Source of the DNA: an uncultured cyanobacterium
Lineage (GTDB): Bacteria > Cyanobacteriota > Cyanobacteriia > Cyanobacteriales > Cyanobacteriaceae
Length of the DNA stretch: 64,000 nucleotides
Direction: 5' to 3'
Assembly (NCBI GenBank): GCA_963710605.1
Contig: CAVQBA010000002.1
Span: 32,001 to 96,000, forward strand
Positions 15,622 through 57,095 of this stretch are shown piece by piece (position 1 is the stretch's first letter; every line of letters begins with the position of its first letter). The notes beneath the pieces were generated by a model that did not search any database, had not been told where the DNA came from, and saw only the letters and a program-made list of their open reading frames with translations. A program made the translations under genes and the position numbers.

Positions 15622-15810
15622 ATGAATTTAGAAGCTTGGCAAAAGCAATATTTTAAAAATTAACCAGCTCATATTAGCAAAAGTCTTTGTGCTATTAAAT
15701 ATCTTGGAGAAAGCACAAATCGATAACAGATTCAAAATACTCTCGAACATATTTGTTATTTAGTTACTCAATCATAAAAAAATGGAAAAAGAGTAATCAA
15801 GTTTTTTTAT
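15622..15810 (+). pseudogene. decayed short ORF interrupted by the tnpB element
   Basis: ATG 15622 frame has three in-frame TAA and runs up to the IS left junction; a possible tail (ERIN*) follows 17172. Confidence 0.3.
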
Positions 15811-17172
15811 CAAAAGTGGAGTTTGAGGAGCAATAAAACCCCGCACCTTCAGGTCGGGGATACATGGACTCCTCAAGGTAATTTTAAAGCCCTCGGCGGG
15901 CGGTAAAAAATACTATTACCATTCTGTTAATAGTATGCTATACTTTGACATAAGATTCAAGAAATTAAGAAATGCTCAAAGCGATAAAGTACCGAATTTA
16001 CCCTGATGACTCTCAGAAGACTTTGTTGAATAAGTCTTTCGGATGTTGTCGTTGGTACTTTAACTACGCATTGGGGAGAACGAATGAAACGTACAAGGAG
16101 ACTGGAAAAGGTTTAAGTAGAAATACAATCATCAAGCTATTGCCAGTTTTAAAGAAAGAACATGAATGGTTAACAGAACCTCCTTCTCAAGCCTTGCAAC
16201 AAGTCGCTTTAGACCTCTCTAGTGCATTTTTGAACTTCTTTGAAGGTAGAGCAAAGTTCCCTCGTTTTAAGAAAAAAGGTAATCGTCAATCTATGCGTTT
16301 GCCTCAAGGATGCAAACTATTAGAAGATACAATCAAACTCCCAAAAATAGGAGAAGTATATTGTAAAATATCTAAACGATTAGAAGGGGAACTTAAATCT
16401 GTCACTGTGAGTAAAGCTCCATCAGACAAATACTATGTTAGTTGTTTGTATGATGATGGTAAATGTTTACCTGAAAAGTCTTCACAAGGCAAGGCGATAG
16501 GTATAGATATGGGTTTAACTCACTATGCAATTACCTCAGAAGGCTCAAAGCATGGTAATCCAAAATACTACCGTAAGTATGAAAATAAGTTGGGTAAACA
16601 ACAAAGACGGTTAAGTAAAAAGGTAAAAGGTTCTAAAAACCGTTACAAAGCAAGAGTCAAGGTTGCTAAGGTTCAAGAAAAAATATCAAGATGTAGAGAA
16701 GATTTCCTCCATAAACTAAGTCGTAAATTAGTGGACGAAAACCAAGTCATTTGTGTGGAGAATCTAGCCGTAAAAAACATGGTGAAAAACCACAAACTAG
16801 CTAAGTCTATTAGTGATGCTAGTTGGGGAATGTTTTGTACTATGTTGAAATACAAGGCAGAATGGGCAGGGAAAACCTACATAGAGGTAGGTAGATTTTA
16901 CCCTAGCTCAAAAACTTGTAATAATTGCTTACATCAAGTGGATAAATTACCTTTAGATATTCGGCAGTGGCAATGTCCTAGTTGTAAAGCAGTTCAGGAC
17001 AGAGATATTAACGCCAGTCGAAACATCAGGGATGAAGGATTACGAATTTTAGGGGTAGGACGTATCCCGATAGCTTCTGGAGAACGAGTAAGACCAAGTA
17101 AAGGCACTGCTTTTGTAAGGCATCATTCTACGAAGGAAGAATCCACTCGCCTTTAGGCAGTGGAGAAGTCAA
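15811..17172 (+). mobile_element. IS200/IS605-family (IS1341-type, tnpB only) element
   Basis: Left: TTTAT|CAAAAG...AAAA-CCCCG..CGGGG-ATAC, IS608-like geometry. Right: AAGAATCCACT..AGTGGAGAAGTCAA ending in TCAA at 17172. No tnpA. Confidence 0.85.
15972..17156 (+). CDS. tnpB: RNA-guided endonuclease TnpB
   Basis: N-terminal HTH (KYRIYP), RuvC D/E/D (GIDMG, VENL, DRDINA) and Zn finger CNNC...CPSC. Confidence 0.95.
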   Translation: MLKAIKYRIYPDDSQKTLLNKSFGCCRWYFNYALGRTNETYKETGKGLSRNTIIKLLPVLKKEHEWLTEPPSQALQQVALDLSSAFLNFFEGRAKFPRFKKKGNRQSMRLPQGCKLLEDTIKLPKIGEVYCKISKRLEGELKSVTVSKAPSDKYYVSCLYDDGKCLPEKSSQGKAIGIDMGLTHYAITSEGSKHGNPKYYRKYENKLGKQQRRLSKKVKGSKNRYKARVKVAKVQEKISRCREDFLHKLSRKLVDENQVICVENLAVKNMVKNHKLAKSISDASWGMFCTMLKYKAEWAGKTYIEVGRFYPSSKTCNNCLHQVDKLPLDIRQWQCPSCKAVQDRDINASRNIRDEGLRILGVGRIPIASGERVRPSKGTAFVRHHSTKEESTRL

Positions 17173-17192
17173 TGAACGTATCAACTAAACAA
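17045..17192 (+). ncRNA. putative TnpB omegaRNA overlapping the tnpB 3' end; guide about 17173-17192
   Basis: Hairpin-rich right end terminating at TCAA; position inferred from established TnpB biology. The 5' boundary is approximate. Confidence 0.65.
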
Positions 17193-18019
17193 TGTCAAAC
17201 ATAGAGTTACCTGAAAATCTAGAAATTTATCGAGAAAAAATAGAAGCAACCATTAAACCTTATCTTCAAATCGAATTAACTCAACAAGATAAGCCCGATT
17301 GGTGGGATAGTAAATTTGGTGGTTTACCTTATTTACCAAAAAATTACGAATATCCTAAAAATAGTCAAGGTGAATATCTTTATCTGTTAGCACAAATTAA
17401 TTTTGCTCAAACACCTGAATTAAAAGATTTTCCCGATCGAGGAATTTTACAGTTTTATATTCTTGCCGATGAGACTTATGGAATGAAATTTCCTGATACT
17501 TTTGAAGAAATGGTTTTACTCAATACTCAACAAGATAATTTTCGAGTAATATACTTTCCTGAAATAAGTTTAAATACAGATGATATATTAACTGATTTTA
17601 GCTTCTTACCAGCAATTAAAGATGATTATTATTATCTTCCCATGAGTGGTTGTTGTGCGATCGATTTTTCCTATCAAACATCTCCTATCAGTATTGTTGA
17701 TTATAACTTTGACTTTTTTCCTAATAATGATTTTTCTAATGAATTTTACAACTCTCTTTACGATTTATATTACGATCGTTTTCCCTGCAACGGTCATAAA
17801 ATAGGAGGCTATCCTAATTTCGTCCAACAAGATCCGCGTTATTCTCTTAAAGAAGATGAAGAAGAACCTTATATTTTACTTTTTCAGATGGATTCTGACT
17901 GGAATGAGATGATTAATATTTTCTGGGGAGATGGTGGTGTTGGTAACTTTTTTATTAAGAAATCTGCTTTGCAAAAATTAGATTTCAGTCAAGTTTTATA
18001 TAACTGGGATTGCGGTTAA
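17192..18019 (+). CDS. YwqG/DUF1963 family protein, copy 1
   Basis: SKFGGLPYLP, LLAQINF, HKIGGYP.F.Q.DPR, WGD.GV.NFFI and YNWDC motifs. Confidence 0.9.
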   Translation: MSNIELPENLEIYREKIEATIKPYLQIELTQQDKPDWWDSKFGGLPYLPKNYEYPKNSQGEYLYLLAQINFAQTPELKDFPDRGILQFYILADETYGMKFPDTFEEMVLLNTQQDNFRVIYFPEISLNTDDILTDFSFLPAIKDDYYYLPMSGCCAIDFSYQTSPISIVDYNFDFFPNNDFSNEFYNSLYDLYYDRFPCNGHKIGGYPNFVQQDPRYSLKEDEEEPYILLFQMDSDWNEMINIFWGDGGVGNFFIKKSALQKLDFSQVLYNWDCG

Positions 18020-18086: not shown

Positions 18087-18998
18087 ATGAATCATAAATT
18101 GAATTTAGAGTTACCTGAAAATCTAGAAATTTATCGAGAAAAAATAGAAGCGACTATTAAACCTTATCTTCAAATCGAATTAACTCAACAAGATAAGCCC
18201 GATTGGTGGGATAGTAAATTTGGTGGTTTACCTTATCTACCAAAAAGCTATGAATATCCTAAAAATAGTCAAGGTGAATATCTTTATCTGTTAGCACAAA
18301 TTAATTTTGCTCAAACACCTGAATTAAAAGATTTTCCCGATCGAGGAATTTTACAGTTTTATATTCTTGCCGATGAGACTTATGGGAAAAAATTTCCTAG
18401 TTTAGAATCATTTGAAAATGTCCAACAGAATATTTTACTCATGACTCAACAAGATAAACTTCAGGAATTTTTAGAAAGTTTTGCAAAGGATAATTTGTTT
18501 CGTAATACTCAACAAGATAATTTTCGAGTAATCTATTTTCCTGAAATTAGTTTTAACCTTGATGATATCCTAACTGATTTCAGCTTTTTACCTCCTATAA
18601 AAGACTATTATTTCCCTATCGAAAAAGGATGCTGTGCGATCGACTTTTCCTATCAAATATCTCCAATCGGTTTTCGTGATTATCAATTTAATATTTTTGA
18701 TTCGGATAAACAGGATGAAAATATTGATCAACAGCCTGATGAAGAAACATATAGTAAGTTTTTTCCTTGCAATGGTCATAAAATAGGAGGCTATCCTCAT
18801 TTTACCCAAGACGATCCACGTTATCTCTTAGAAGAAGATGAAGACCCTTATATTTTACTTTTTCAGATGGTTTCTCAGGATAATAAATCGATCTATATAA
18901 TGTGGGGAGATTGCGGTGTTGCTAACTTTTTTATTAAGAAATCTGCTTTAAAACGATTAGATTTTAGTCAAGTTTTATATAACTGGGATTGCGGTTAA
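18087..18998 (+). CDS. YwqG/DUF1963 family protein, copy 2
   Basis: Same motifs; first ~90 aa almost identical to copy 1. Confidence 0.9.
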   Translation: MNHKLNLELPENLEIYREKIEATIKPYLQIELTQQDKPDWWDSKFGGLPYLPKSYEYPKNSQGEYLYLLAQINFAQTPELKDFPDRGILQFYILADETYGKKFPSLESFENVQQNILLMTQQDKLQEFLESFAKDNLFRNTQQDNFRVIYFPEISFNLDDILTDFSFLPPIKDYYFPIEKGCCAIDFSYQISPIGFRDYQFNIFDSDKQDENIDQQPDEETYSKFFPCNGHKIGGYPHFTQDDPRYLLEEDEDPYILLFQMVSQDNKSIYIMWGDCGVANFFIKKSALKRLDFSQVLYNWDCG

Positions 18999-54276: not shown

Positions 54277-55722
54277 TTAACCTAAATTATTTTGAACCGC
54301 CTTAACCAAATAATTAGTCCAATGGTTGACTAAATCTACATTTTGTGCCTCTACCATTACCCGAATTAAAGGCTCTGTACCCGATGCCCTAACCAAAATT
54401 CGACCTTGATCACTCATATCTTTTTGAGCTAAGGAAATTGCTTCTTGAATAGCAGTTGATTCTTGCCAATGTAAACGTTTTTCACGATCGTTAACTGTAA
54501 TATTATGTAAAATTTGTGGGTAAGGCTCAAAGCTATCATCAACTAAAGAAGCCAAATCTTGTCCTTGTTGAGTAACTAAAGCAGTTAATTGTAAAGCAGT
54601 CTGCAAACCATCTCCTGAAAAATGATGATGGTGACAAAGAATATGCCCTGATTGTTCGCCTCCTAACATTGCTCCTGTTTCCCACATCGAAGCTTGTACA
54701 TTTTGATCACCAACGGAGGTACGAATTAATTCACCGCCGAGTTTTTTCCAAGCTAATTCAAAACCTAAATTAGCCATAACAGTACCGATGAGTAAATTAT
54801 TAGGCAGTAATTGCTGTTGTTTTAATGCTTTGCCCCACAGATAAAGAATATAATCACCACAGACTACTCTTCCTTTTGTATCTACTGCCATAACTCGATC
54901 GGCATCTCCATCAAAAGCATAACCCATATCGGCATTATGTTCTGCTACTGCTTTATTTAAAGTTTCTAGGTGAGTTGAACCACAATTGACGTTAATACGA
55001 TCGCCATCTGCTCGATCATGTAAACAAATTACCTCAGCACCTAAAGCCCGAAAGACTTTTGGGGCAAGCTCAACACTAGCACCCCATGCTAAATCAAGAA
55101 CAACTTTCAGACCTTTAAAAGTCGTATTTTCCTGAAAAGCAGACTGTAAAAAATCAGCATAAAACCGAGTTAAGCTATGTTGATTATAAACTTGACCACA
55201 TTTTTGTTCTTGTAAACTAATCTCTCCTGCTACGTATTGACGTAAGGTAGTTTCAATCGCATTTGTGATTGATTTATCTAATTTAGTACCATTACCACTA
55301 AAAAACTTAATTCCGTTGTCTTGCGGTGGATTATGACTAGCTGAAATCATAATAGCACCTAATGCTTCTGTCGTTTTCGCTAGATAAGCTACACAAGGAG
55401 TAGGGCATAAACCCACATTCCAAACTTCAAAACCCATCGAAGTTAACCCAGAAGCGATCGCCATTGCTAACATATCACTGGAATTACGAGAATCTTGACC
55501 GATGATAATAACCTTAGAATCAACAACTAATTTTTGCCAAACCTCTCCTGCGGCTAAACCAACATTTAAAGCTAAATGGGGAGTTAGTAATTCACCTACT
55601 TTTCCTCGAATACCATCAGTACCAAATAGTTGTTTTGGTAAAGTGTATTGACTACTATTAGAATTACCTTCAGTAGAAGCAAAAGAGCTATTTTGTTGAT
55701 TTTCACTCATAAAAGCGACCAT
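54277..55722 (-). CDS. glmM: phosphoglucosamine mutase
   Basis: [29 protein letters not shown] and RASGTEP motifs. Confidence 0.95.
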
Positions 55723-56204
55723 ATTTGTTATTCCTCACACAATAAATTATTTATTTTAAAATCGATAGCTAAAAATTGTGAATTAATTCACAAATTCTGA
55801 ATTTAAATGCCGAATCAATTAATCCACACAGAAAAATTATTTTTATTATCTATATTTGTTTGAACTAGATAACTTTTAGCTATCAAAAGTTATACTTTGA
55901 TCGTTAATATTTAATCAACTTCTCAAAAATCGTTTTGATGTTATACTATAAAATAGCCTGTAATTTAGCATTTTATGAGCGATTAACCAAAAAATTATGA
56001 AGCTATCATAGCCTATAATTTACACAATTGCGAAAGTGACACAAGAAAAACATAAAATGCCTTAATAATTATCGGTGAAAACAACAGTAACTATTGTTTA
56101 GAATAAAAGCTAAGCTAGTCAATCGTACTCTAGATATTAGCTTTGTAAGCGTAGGTGGATGTGGATACTTAGCCCAGAAACAAGTTGCTAACTTCTTGAT
56201 TTAT

Positions 56205-56554
56205 CTTAATGTGTAAAGAAGACTCTCACTATAAAGTGAGTTCGAGTAGAGTTACCGAAGGTAAAGGCGGACGTGCCTTCTAGTGGAGAGATGAATTTAC
56301 ACCAACAAAAAAACATTGCTATAGCAATTCCTTCATGCTAGACTAAATAAATACCGTCAACAGGTATCTACGGGGAGTCCCCCCGAAAGTCACGGTTAAC
56401 CATGAACTGGCATGGTGCTTGGGAACAAGTGGATGTATGACTGTCGTTGGATGGTCAGCAAGTGCAAACCTCGCAAGAGAGTAGGGAGGTAAAGGCAACT
56501 CTACCTAAGAATCCCCCGTTATAGCCCGTAGGGTTTAGTGGCGGGAGTCGTCAA
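56205..56554 (+). mobile_element. ORF-less IS200/IS605 mini-element (left end + promoter + omegaRNA/right end)
   Basis: Preceded by TTTAT; left hairpin GTGTAAA..CTCTCACTA / TAGTGGAGAG..TTTACAC; right end AAGAATCCCCCG..CGGGAGTCGTCAA; no tnpA or tnpB. Confidence 0.7.
56316..56344 (+). promoter_or_regulatory. sigma70-type promoter inside the mini-element
   Basis: TTGCTA-N17-TAGACT with extended TG; the tnpB element has an analogous TGcTATACT at 15936-15944. Confidence 0.6.
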
Positions 56555-56574
56555 TAAAATAAAAAATATAGTCG
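56351..56574 (+). ncRNA. putative stand-alone TnpB-type omegaRNA with 3' guide
   Basis: GC-rich run of hairpins (CGGGG/CCCCG, ACCATG/CATGGT, TGACTGTC/GATGGTCA, CTC-GCAA-GAG) ending at TCAA. Confidence 0.6.
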
Positions 56575-56575
56575 A

Positions 56576-56601
56576 AGAAGTGGGGAAACCCCGCTTTTTT
56601 T
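56576..56601 (+). promoter_or_regulatory. rimP leader hairpin (terminator-like)
   Basis: AAGTGGGG-AAA-CCCCGCTT followed by a T-run, 30 bp before rimP; resembles the widespread rimP-leader GTGGG/CCCRC stem. Confidence 0.7.
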
Positions 56602-56630
56602 ATTGCTTATTATTTATCATCTTATTAAAA

Positions 56631-57095
56631 ATGACCAATCCTGTAACAGTATCAATTAAAAAAATAGCCGAGCCAATAGCCAAGCAACTTGAATTAGAAA
56701 TAGTTGATTTAATTTTTCAAACCAATAACAATCCTGCTAACTTGAGAATCGATATTCAAAGTTTTTCAGGAGAGACTAGTCTAGAAAATTGTGAAAAAAT
56801 GAGCCGTTTACTAGAAGAAGCGTTAGATCAAGAAAATGTTATTCCCTGTGCCTACAATCTAGAAGTCTCTAGCCCTGGAATTGGAAATAACCTCACGACA
56901 AACCAAGAATTTGTAAGTTTTAAAGGTTTTCCGATCGTAGTTGAGACTAATACCGTTTTCAAAAAAAAGACTCAATGGCGAGGAACTTTACACGGTAGAG
57001 ATGAAGAATCAGTCTTAGTTAATTCTAAAGGAAAAATAATCAAGATTCCTCGAGAGATTGTTACTAAAGTAGAATTAGAAAACGCCAGTGCTTAA
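56631..57095 (+). CDS. rimP: ribosome maturation factor RimP
   Basis: LENCEKMSR..EEALD, YNLEVSSPG; start corrected to ATG 56631; operon context. Confidence 0.93.
   Translation: MTNPVTVSIKKIAEPIAKQLELEIVDLIFQTNNNPANLRIDIQSFSGETSLENCEKMSRLLEEALDQENVIPCAYNLEVSSPGIGNNLTTNQEFVSFKGFPIVVETNTVFKKKTQWRGTLHGRDEESVLVNSKGKIIKIPREIVTKVELENASA

Follow-up and report, generated by a model that had tools for sequence, protein, structure and literature searches.

The closest described systems are the gene-less PATE-like elements of Geobacillus stearothermophilus, which, according to passages of Meers et al. 2023 (10.1101/2023.03.14.532601), "often encode omegaRNAs" that are necessarily used in trans. The same passages describe how an element with its TnpA and TnpB is retained: TnpA excises the element and the donor site is resealed, the TnpB-omegaRNA complex cuts the resealed site by means of a target-adjacent motif (TAM) and a guide derived from the flank, and the element is then regained by recombination with a sister copy. 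Here we describe a 350-bp island in a 64,000-nucleotide (nt) stretch of contig CAVQBA010000002.1 (assembly GCA_963710605.1) from an uncultured cyanobacterium; the whole of this stretch is called the window. The island, at 56205–56554, is probably a non-autonomous, protein-less PATE-like element of the IS200/IS605 type, consisting of a left end, a candidate promoter and a full omegaRNA scaffold up to TCAA. It is an insertion that lies directly 3′ of TTTAT, within the loop formed by the rimP leader hairpin, and its RNA is proposed to be used in trans by a TnpB encoded on another contig of the same genome (C4).

Insertion in the rimP leader

The genes glmM (54277–55722, − strand) and rimP (ATG at 56631) are divergent, and the spacer between them is AT-rich, with a GC content of 0.2–0.3. 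The original prediction, made from the letters of the window, had marked off a 350-bp GC-rich island between TTTAT and GTCAA (56550–56554). Both borders read in the sequence as claimed and the 350-nt extent holds, but the GC-rich portion is only about 200 nt long (0.51–0.53 at 56350–56549). The island had also been described as free of a protein gene, which agrees with the translation: no + strand open reading frame (ORF) of at least 40 amino acids (aa) lies wholly within 56205–56554, and the sole frame, of 51 aa, is on the − strand. TTGATTTAT and TAAAATAAA, which flank the island, do not repeat one another, and the insertion is without a target-site duplication.

The empty site is found in G001, a genome of the same genus, in which the orthologous spacer of glmM and rimP can be aligned on either side of the island but is without 56205–56554. 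The site in G001 consists of CTTCTTC and GAAGAAG around a 23-nt A-rich loop; a terminator hairpin and a T run come next. When the island is removed, the window reads ACTTCTT-G-ATTTAT/TAAAATAAAAAATATAGTC-GAAGAAGT (the slash marks the point of insertion), followed by the same terminator as in G001, which a terminator scan calls at 56574–56600. The stem of the hairpin should be noted. At its position G013 has TCCGT/ACGGA where G001 has CTTCTTC/GAAGAAG, and hence both stem sides have changed. In G006, G013 and G047, the last of which belongs to another family, the terminator lies about 30–45 nt upstream of rimP, and the island is again missing. These comparisons confirm that the island was inserted into a conserved leader hairpin, within its loop, and that this hairpin abuts a conserved terminator. 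The arms ACTTCTT (56191–56197) and AAGAAGT (56575–56581) stand on either side of the island. The comparisons bear out the prediction, which had placed the island in this loop and had expected an empty site in relatives.

The terminator hairpin upstream of rimP (AGTGGGnAAACCCCGC, then a T run) is nearly identical in the four other genomes G001, G006, G013 and G047 (orthologous sites in L028, L026, L031 and L034). Together, the covarying stem and the conserved terminator look like a conserved leader or attenuator of rimP-nusA-infB, though no Rfam family matches the leader hairpin or its terminator. A search of the genome contigs with the RimP protein gave one locus (in a Cyanobacteria metagenome-assembled genome (MAG), 44% identity) and added no empty site.

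A promoter-like site is found farther upstream at 55920–55947 on the + strand, with TTCTCA, a 16-nt spacer and TATACT in a TG-extended −10 box. This stretch is the best conserved with G001. It is likely to be the candidate promoter of the rimP leader, whose length would be about 330 nt without the island. Both this site and the terminator are intact despite the insertion. The insertion, which has the orientation of rimP, lengthens the hairpin loop by 350 nt and brings a possible second promoter upstream of the terminator. The absence of the island from G001 argues against a conserved regulatory role for it.

RNA core and its relation to tnpB

A DNA search with the island region covered 61 genomes including its own (G000) and gave matches in 24. 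The matches fall into four segments, namely the left end (56200–56293), the middle (56302–56441), the right end (56507–56559) and the rimP leader flank, the last of which is single-copy. The 50 nt of the right end are multi-copy in G007, G012, G015 and G016, where they frequently lie at the ends of contigs. Two full-length elements of G009 bear both island ends: L038 encodes a TnpB of 485 aa with OrfB_IS605, TNB and HTH domains, and L039 encodes one of 407 aa with OrfB_IS605 and TNB domains. The left end of L038 is 88% identical to 56201–56293 of the window over 93 nt, and its right end is 90% identical to that of the island over 41 nt; the left end of the island is also 80% identical to a sequence in G017 (L044) over 134 nt. 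The sharing of both ends with full-length tnpB elements agrees with the earlier description of the island as an ORF-less IS200/IS605 derivative, and the left-end hairpin described at that time is present (Table 1). The right-end hairpin folded as DNA has a z of −0.50, which is not beyond shuffles. The island also retains a frame of the tnpB C-terminus, with LRGVPPKVTV against LWGVTPKVTA in the C4 TnpB over the first ten codons, and then a stop. This residual frame would fit an origin of the island from an element with tnpB, but conservation of the RNA and conservation of the frame are not independent.

The stretch 56345–56606 folds as RNA with −84.4 kcal/mol (z = −3.0), and a 204-nt core with 10 helices corresponds to the roughly 200 nt of hairpins that had been predicted. 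A covariance model, R1, was made from nine ORF-less copies of this core (the window copy, five copies of G009 and single copies of G018, G020 and G041). In a MAFFT alignment of the nine copies, which was not fitted to any structure, RNAalifold gives 48 pairs, 23 of which are compensatory. In the island's own genome, R1 has three matches and no others: the island (180.5 bits), G000:C4:1257223-1257382 (57.1 bits, E = 4e-15) and G000:C6:922920-923042 (13.9 bits). The C4 match is the 3′ end of an ORF for a 476-aa TnpB. The C6 match, outside the window and on the − strand, is a short fragment like the left end of the island (GTGAGAGTCTTCTTTA...) and may be a solo left-end remnant.

Matches to R1 are found in 10 of the 20 family genomes searched (E ≤ 0.01) and in 17 of the 131 order genomes searched (E ≤ 1e-5). 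We tested 55 loci (L081–L136 except L111) by tblastn with the C4 TnpB. At 23 of them, a homologue of this protein (38–64% identity) is present and the C-terminal end of its coding sequence overlaps the R1 match; these matches score 28.6–98.6 bits, and the linked tnpB genes encode 470–485 aa. All 15 loci that score at least 118.9 bits, from seven genomes, have no adjoining tnpB homologue; at L107 there is only an unrelated gene (27% identity) on the opposite strand. The other 17 loci, which score lower and of which several are cut by contig ends, are unassigned to either class. Locus L030 of G029 was considered as an ORF-less copy, as its + strand neighbour is an aminotransferase gene, but was rejected, since tblastn detects a TnpB homologue on the other strand that ends at the match (L120), and it is counted as tnpB-linked.

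When 32 copies of both classes are aligned to R1, 37 of the 48 pairs have changes on both sides and 93.6% of the cells are paired, a fraction inflated by the fitting of this alignment to the model structure. None of 500 shuffles reaches this fold, and slid registers give 33–43%. The unfitted nine-copy result agrees with it in direction. The 3′ end of R1 is the TCAA at 56554, that is, the insertion border set by the comparison with G001, and the TnpB-linked copies likewise end in TCAA at the 3′ end of the model. Since R1 also matches the 3′ ends of tnpB genes, the alignments support the assignment of the 204-nt core as the omegaRNA scaffold of one TnpB clade, in line with the claim that the island encodes a TnpB-type guide RNA. 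The prediction had named a match to a different known RNA family as evidence against itself. Rfam release 15 (4227 models) gives no match at the gathering score in the whole window, and at E ≤ 10 it gives sub-threshold chance matches only (sroD, SAM-II and L20 leader) on 56000–56750, the best of which is sroD on the terminator with 23.1 bits against a threshold of 50.

The −10 hexamer upstream of the core is TAGACT at 56339–56344, with TG at 56336–56337, and the extended box TGCTAGACT spans 56336–56344; the promoter hexamers had been predicted correctly to within 1 nt. Judging from the box, transcription would start near 56350–56353. Of the 16 ORF-less copies inspected, 12 have a TGnTAnnnT box closely upstream of where the model starts, for example TGCTATAAT, TGGTAAAAT, TGCTACAAT and TGTTAGAAT. 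The junctions are conserved as well: of the 11 ORF-less copies with a placeable left end, 9 have TTTAT immediately before it (the other two have ATTAT and GTTAT), and TCAA is present at the 3′ end of the model in 14 of 16, as expected from the predicted target and right-end motif. The 3′ flanks differ among all the ORF-less copies, as is expected of guides taken from insertion sites.

The ORF-less copies in relatives number six in G009, five in G041, three in G063 and one each in G018, G020, G043 and G127. They are found at unrelated loci, with genes for PspA, a trypsin-like peptidase, a DUF3226 protein and LptC as neighbours. Further copies with TTTAT and TCAA junctions and other flanks had been anticipated; they do exist in relatives, but there are none in the island's own genome. 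The ORF-less copies, which come from several host families, score 119–251 bits with one another, against 29–99 bits with the tnpB-linked ones.

Variants were observed among the ORF-less copies. A compact form of about 265 nt (L112, L113, L114, L115 and L127, in G020, G041, G043 and G063) has a left end with a single hairpin; this end is about 55 nt long and abuts the −10 box. In L036 and L041, two copies of G009, a short palindrome (GGGTCAACGGCCGTTGACCC) that other copies are without is inserted in the interval from the left end to the −10 box. In L040, 80 nt are inserted downstream of the −10 box, ahead of the RNA. At two loci of G009, L017 (1424–1500) and L040 (1029–953), group II introns end exactly where the homology to window 56302 starts. 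In this genome an intron has been inserted into ORF-less omegaRNA elements just upstream of the promoter, at a site that differs from that of the intron in G000 described below. The island was also considered as a fragment of a group II intron and rejected as such: the RF00029 matches in G009 stop where the island homology starts, and hence the element is the target of the intron and not a part of it.

Table 1. Positions of the element, its parts and the adjoining leader features in the window
Feature	Position	Strand	Remarks
5′ arm (ACTTCTT) of the rimP leader hairpin	56191–56197	+	split from its partner by the insertion; pairs with 56575–56581 (AAGAAGT)
TTTAT target pentanucleotide	56200–56204	+	flank, outside the element; transposase insertion motif, presumed TAM
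Whole ORF-less IS200/IS605-type (PATE-like) element	56205–56554	+	350 bp; empty orthologous site in G001
Left end with subterminal hairpins	56205–56300	+	includes CTCACT-ATAA-AGTGAG at 56225–56240; DNA fold z = −3.19
Candidate promoter	56316–56344	+	TTGCTA (56316–56321), 17-nt spacer, TG-extended −10 box TGCTAGACT
omegaRNA scaffold	56351–56554	+	204 nt, 10 helices; R1 180.5 bits
TCAA, right-end cleavage motif	56551–56554	+	final bases of the element
Presumed guide (TAAAATAAAAAATATAGTCG)	56555–56574	+	20 nt of 3′ flank after the scaffold; placed by position and by the TnpB omegaRNA layout given in passages of Meers et al. 2023 (10.1101/2023.03.14.532601)
3′ arm (GAAGAAGT) of the leader hairpin and intrinsic terminator	56574–56601	+	GTGGGG-AAA-CCCCGC, T run; the ATG of rimP lies 30 nt downstream

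Partner proteins, guide and alternative explanations

The genome contains 24 matches to OrfB_IS605 and, for the Y1 transposase (TnpA), seven strong and five weak ones. The R1 and tblastn results support the 476-aa TnpB on contig C4 as the probable cognate of the island RNA. It alone was found to belong to the cognate clade, as no other R1 match is linked to tnpB and the next tblastn match is 34% identical, though this tblastn gave one high-scoring segment pair per contig, and other copies on C4 itself would stay hidden. The protein looks intact: D222, E308 and D405/D407, at invariant alignment columns, and four zinc-finger Cys residues are all kept. Its element is also preceded by TTTAT.

A group II intron, about 2.75 kb long, interrupts the omegaRNA of the C4 element itself; it is located outside the window at about 1656–4402 of L111 (G000:C4:1255700-1260700). 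The intron follows ...AACCCTCTACAAC, starts with GTGCG on the same strand as tnpB and encodes a 629-aa protein with RVT_N, RVT_1, GIIM and HNH domains, and its domain V/VI is matched by RF00029 at L111 4324–4402. Beyond the intron, at L111 4403–4492, lie the rest of the omegaRNA, about a third of it, and the right end (...TTCTTCAA). Splicing, as judged from these junctions, would restore both the guide scaffold and the C-terminus of TnpB.

The window has an intact tnpB element of its own at 15811–17172, which the prediction had presented as sharing the TTTAT and TCAA code with the island. The code is indeed the same, with TTTAT at 15806–15810 and GTCAA at 17168–17172. As the source of the partner protein, however, this element was rejected in favour of C4: its 394-aa TnpB (15972–17156) is 26% identical to the C4 protein, and R1 gives no match to the element (E ≤ 10). 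Directly downstream of it, tandem paralogous ORFs of 275 and 303 aa are found on the + strand (17192–18019 and 18087–18998), the N-terminal halves of which are near-identical.

The proposed mechanism of the island follows the published homing model. From its own promoter, an RNA consisting of scaffold and flank would be transcribed, with its 3′ end probably about 47 nt past TCAA, where the leader terminator lies. This RNA would be bound in trans by the C4 TnpB. Upon excision of the element by a TnpA, the restored TTTAT + TAAAATAAAAAATATAGTCG would be cut and then repaired from a sister copy in which the element is still present, and the element would be retained. The target, TTTAT followed by the guide sequence, would arise only after excision, and no other TTTAT-adjacent target with fewer than three mismatches in the first 16 nt of the guide is found in the genome. 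We infer transcription, binding, cleavage and mobility from the analysis of the sequences.

Several observations weigh against this reading. The island is a single copy in its own genome by both BLAST and R1, which bears on recent mobility here, and BLAST gives only short, weak matches as further copies. No other −10 box of the ORF-less copies is as weak as its own, and a simple sigma-70 scan does not call the island promoter, because 8 of 12 positions match against a threshold of 9; the case for the promoter is therefore one of positional conservation, not of consensus strength. Four of the 48 consensus pairs are unpaired in the window copy. No TnpA is tied to the island ends, a short-word BLAST of both ends against the genome returning the island only. 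To these are added the intron in the omegaRNA of the cognate tnpB and the fitting of the 32-copy alignment to the model.

The single copy, the weak box, the four unpaired positions and the missing link to a TnpA would all be accounted for if the island were a dead remnant of internal deletion in a tnpB element, harmless in the leader loop and inert with respect to useful transcription, TnpB use and mobility. We consider this unlikely. Both ends, the TTTAT and TCAA junctions, the position of the promoter and 44 of the 48 pairs are intact; the score of the island is within the range of its multi-copy ORF-less relatives (165–251 bits); and the genome encodes a cognate TnpB with its catalytic residues.

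Less probable still, to a marked degree, is that the promoter or the RNA was co-opted for the expression of rimP-nusA-infB, through a second promoter, the disruption of the hairpin or a TnpB-RNA complex near the leader. The shared orientation, a promoter about 250 nt upstream of the conserved leader terminator and the splitting of a hairpin that covaries between relatives are compatible with such a role. The island is, however, absent from the same-genus G001 and so is not a conserved part of the leader, and the intact terminator downstream would stop most transcripts. Besides, the occupied site has TCAA, not TTTAT, beside the guide match; with no TAM there, TnpB should not bind. The cognate TnpB also keeps its nuclease residues, unlike the nuclease-dead TldR in the parts of PMC10705468 used here. 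That the island is not derived from a transposon, being instead a native rimP leader element, a riboswitch, a small RNA or a fragment of a known RNA such as a group II intron, is scarcely credible: its leader position, its strong structure and the direct adjacency of homologous sequence to group II intron ends in G009 would agree with this, but it is already contradicted by the site empty in relatives, the copies scattered at unrelated loci beside different genes and the matches to tnpB 3′ ends, and Rfam offers no family at the gathering score and nothing meaningful at E ≤ 10.

Comparison with known systems

Beyond the preferred reading of the island as a PATE-like element served in trans by the C4 TnpB, a broader interpretation is conceivable, which we put forward as speculative and rather doubtful. 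The ORF-less copies would be a lineage of "omegaRNA-only" transposons of about 265–350 bp with their own promoter, spread over several host families and parasitising the TnpA and TnpB of full-length elements, and not sporadic deletion products; the copy in the rimP leader would be the only uninterrupted guide for the C4 TnpB, whose own guide is split by the intron. If this is true, the C4 nuclease would guard the leader insertion in an essential operon, and a chromosome break would follow there once the element is lost.

Under the preferred reading, the island is a clean natural example of a guide RNA parted from its nuclease gene and travelling alone. The 10-helix covarying model and the TnpB clade can serve annotation, and together they make a candidate compact editor pair. 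Testable predictions on the use of TnpB in trans and on the retention of the element arise from the position in the leader, from the promoter predicted within the element and from the intron that splits the cognate guide. In titles and the beginnings of abstracts, with subscription papers outside the scope, no literature on these cyanobacterial elements or on group II introns inside omegaRNAs was found.

Miniature inverted-repeat transposable elements (MITEs) resemble the island and the other ORF-less copies in being short, non-coding and non-autonomous and in being multi-copy in some genomes, and the island would depend, as they do, on a transposase in trans. Unlike MITEs, the island is without terminal inverted repeats or a target-site duplication, its insertion is strand-specific, 3′ of TTTAT, and it bears a functional-looking RNA gene.

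TldR proteins, described in the parts of PMC10705468 used here as nuclease-dead TnpB-like repressors with guide RNAs, share with the present system a TnpB-type guide RNA aimed at a chromosomal site near a host gene. They differ in other respects. The C4 TnpB keeps all the catalytic residues (D222, E308 and D405/D407), and the island RNA lies within a mobile element with intact ends, its guide matching only its own insertion site.

There is also a likeness to canonical tnpB-linked omegaRNA (reRNA). In both, the scaffold stops at the cleavage motif of the right end, and the fold of the island RNA is common to the copies overlapping tnpB; as in the canonical case, the island RNA would take its guide from the 3′ flank, and its TAM would be the transposase target motif at the left flank. 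The island scaffold differs in being detached from the tnpB ORF and placed behind a predicted promoter.

The nearest counterparts are the PATE-like elements, which are compared here from text passages of Meers et al. 2023 (10.1101/2023.03.14.532601). Like them, the island has no protein gene, has ends common with tnpB-bearing relatives and keeps an omegaRNA at its right end for a TnpB encoded elsewhere; mobilisation by TnpA in trans would apply to it in the same way. Unlike them as described in these passages, the island is in a different host lineage (the nearest named relative of its RimP is from a Cyanobacteria MAG), its omegaRNA family is absent from Rfam, and the ORF-less copies are closer to one another than to the tnpB-linked ones; the conserved TG-extended −10 box directly upstream of the scaffold is a feature of the copies here. 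Judging from these passages, the kind of element is already known, namely ORF-less IS200/IS605 or PATE-like elements with omegaRNAs. What is new is the RNA family and its tie to a clade of TnpB proteins of 470–485 aa with a TTTAT TAM, together with the conserved (predicted) promoter of the ORF-less copies and their spread over several host families. As the principle has already been published, the result refines the picture of such elements and does not change it.

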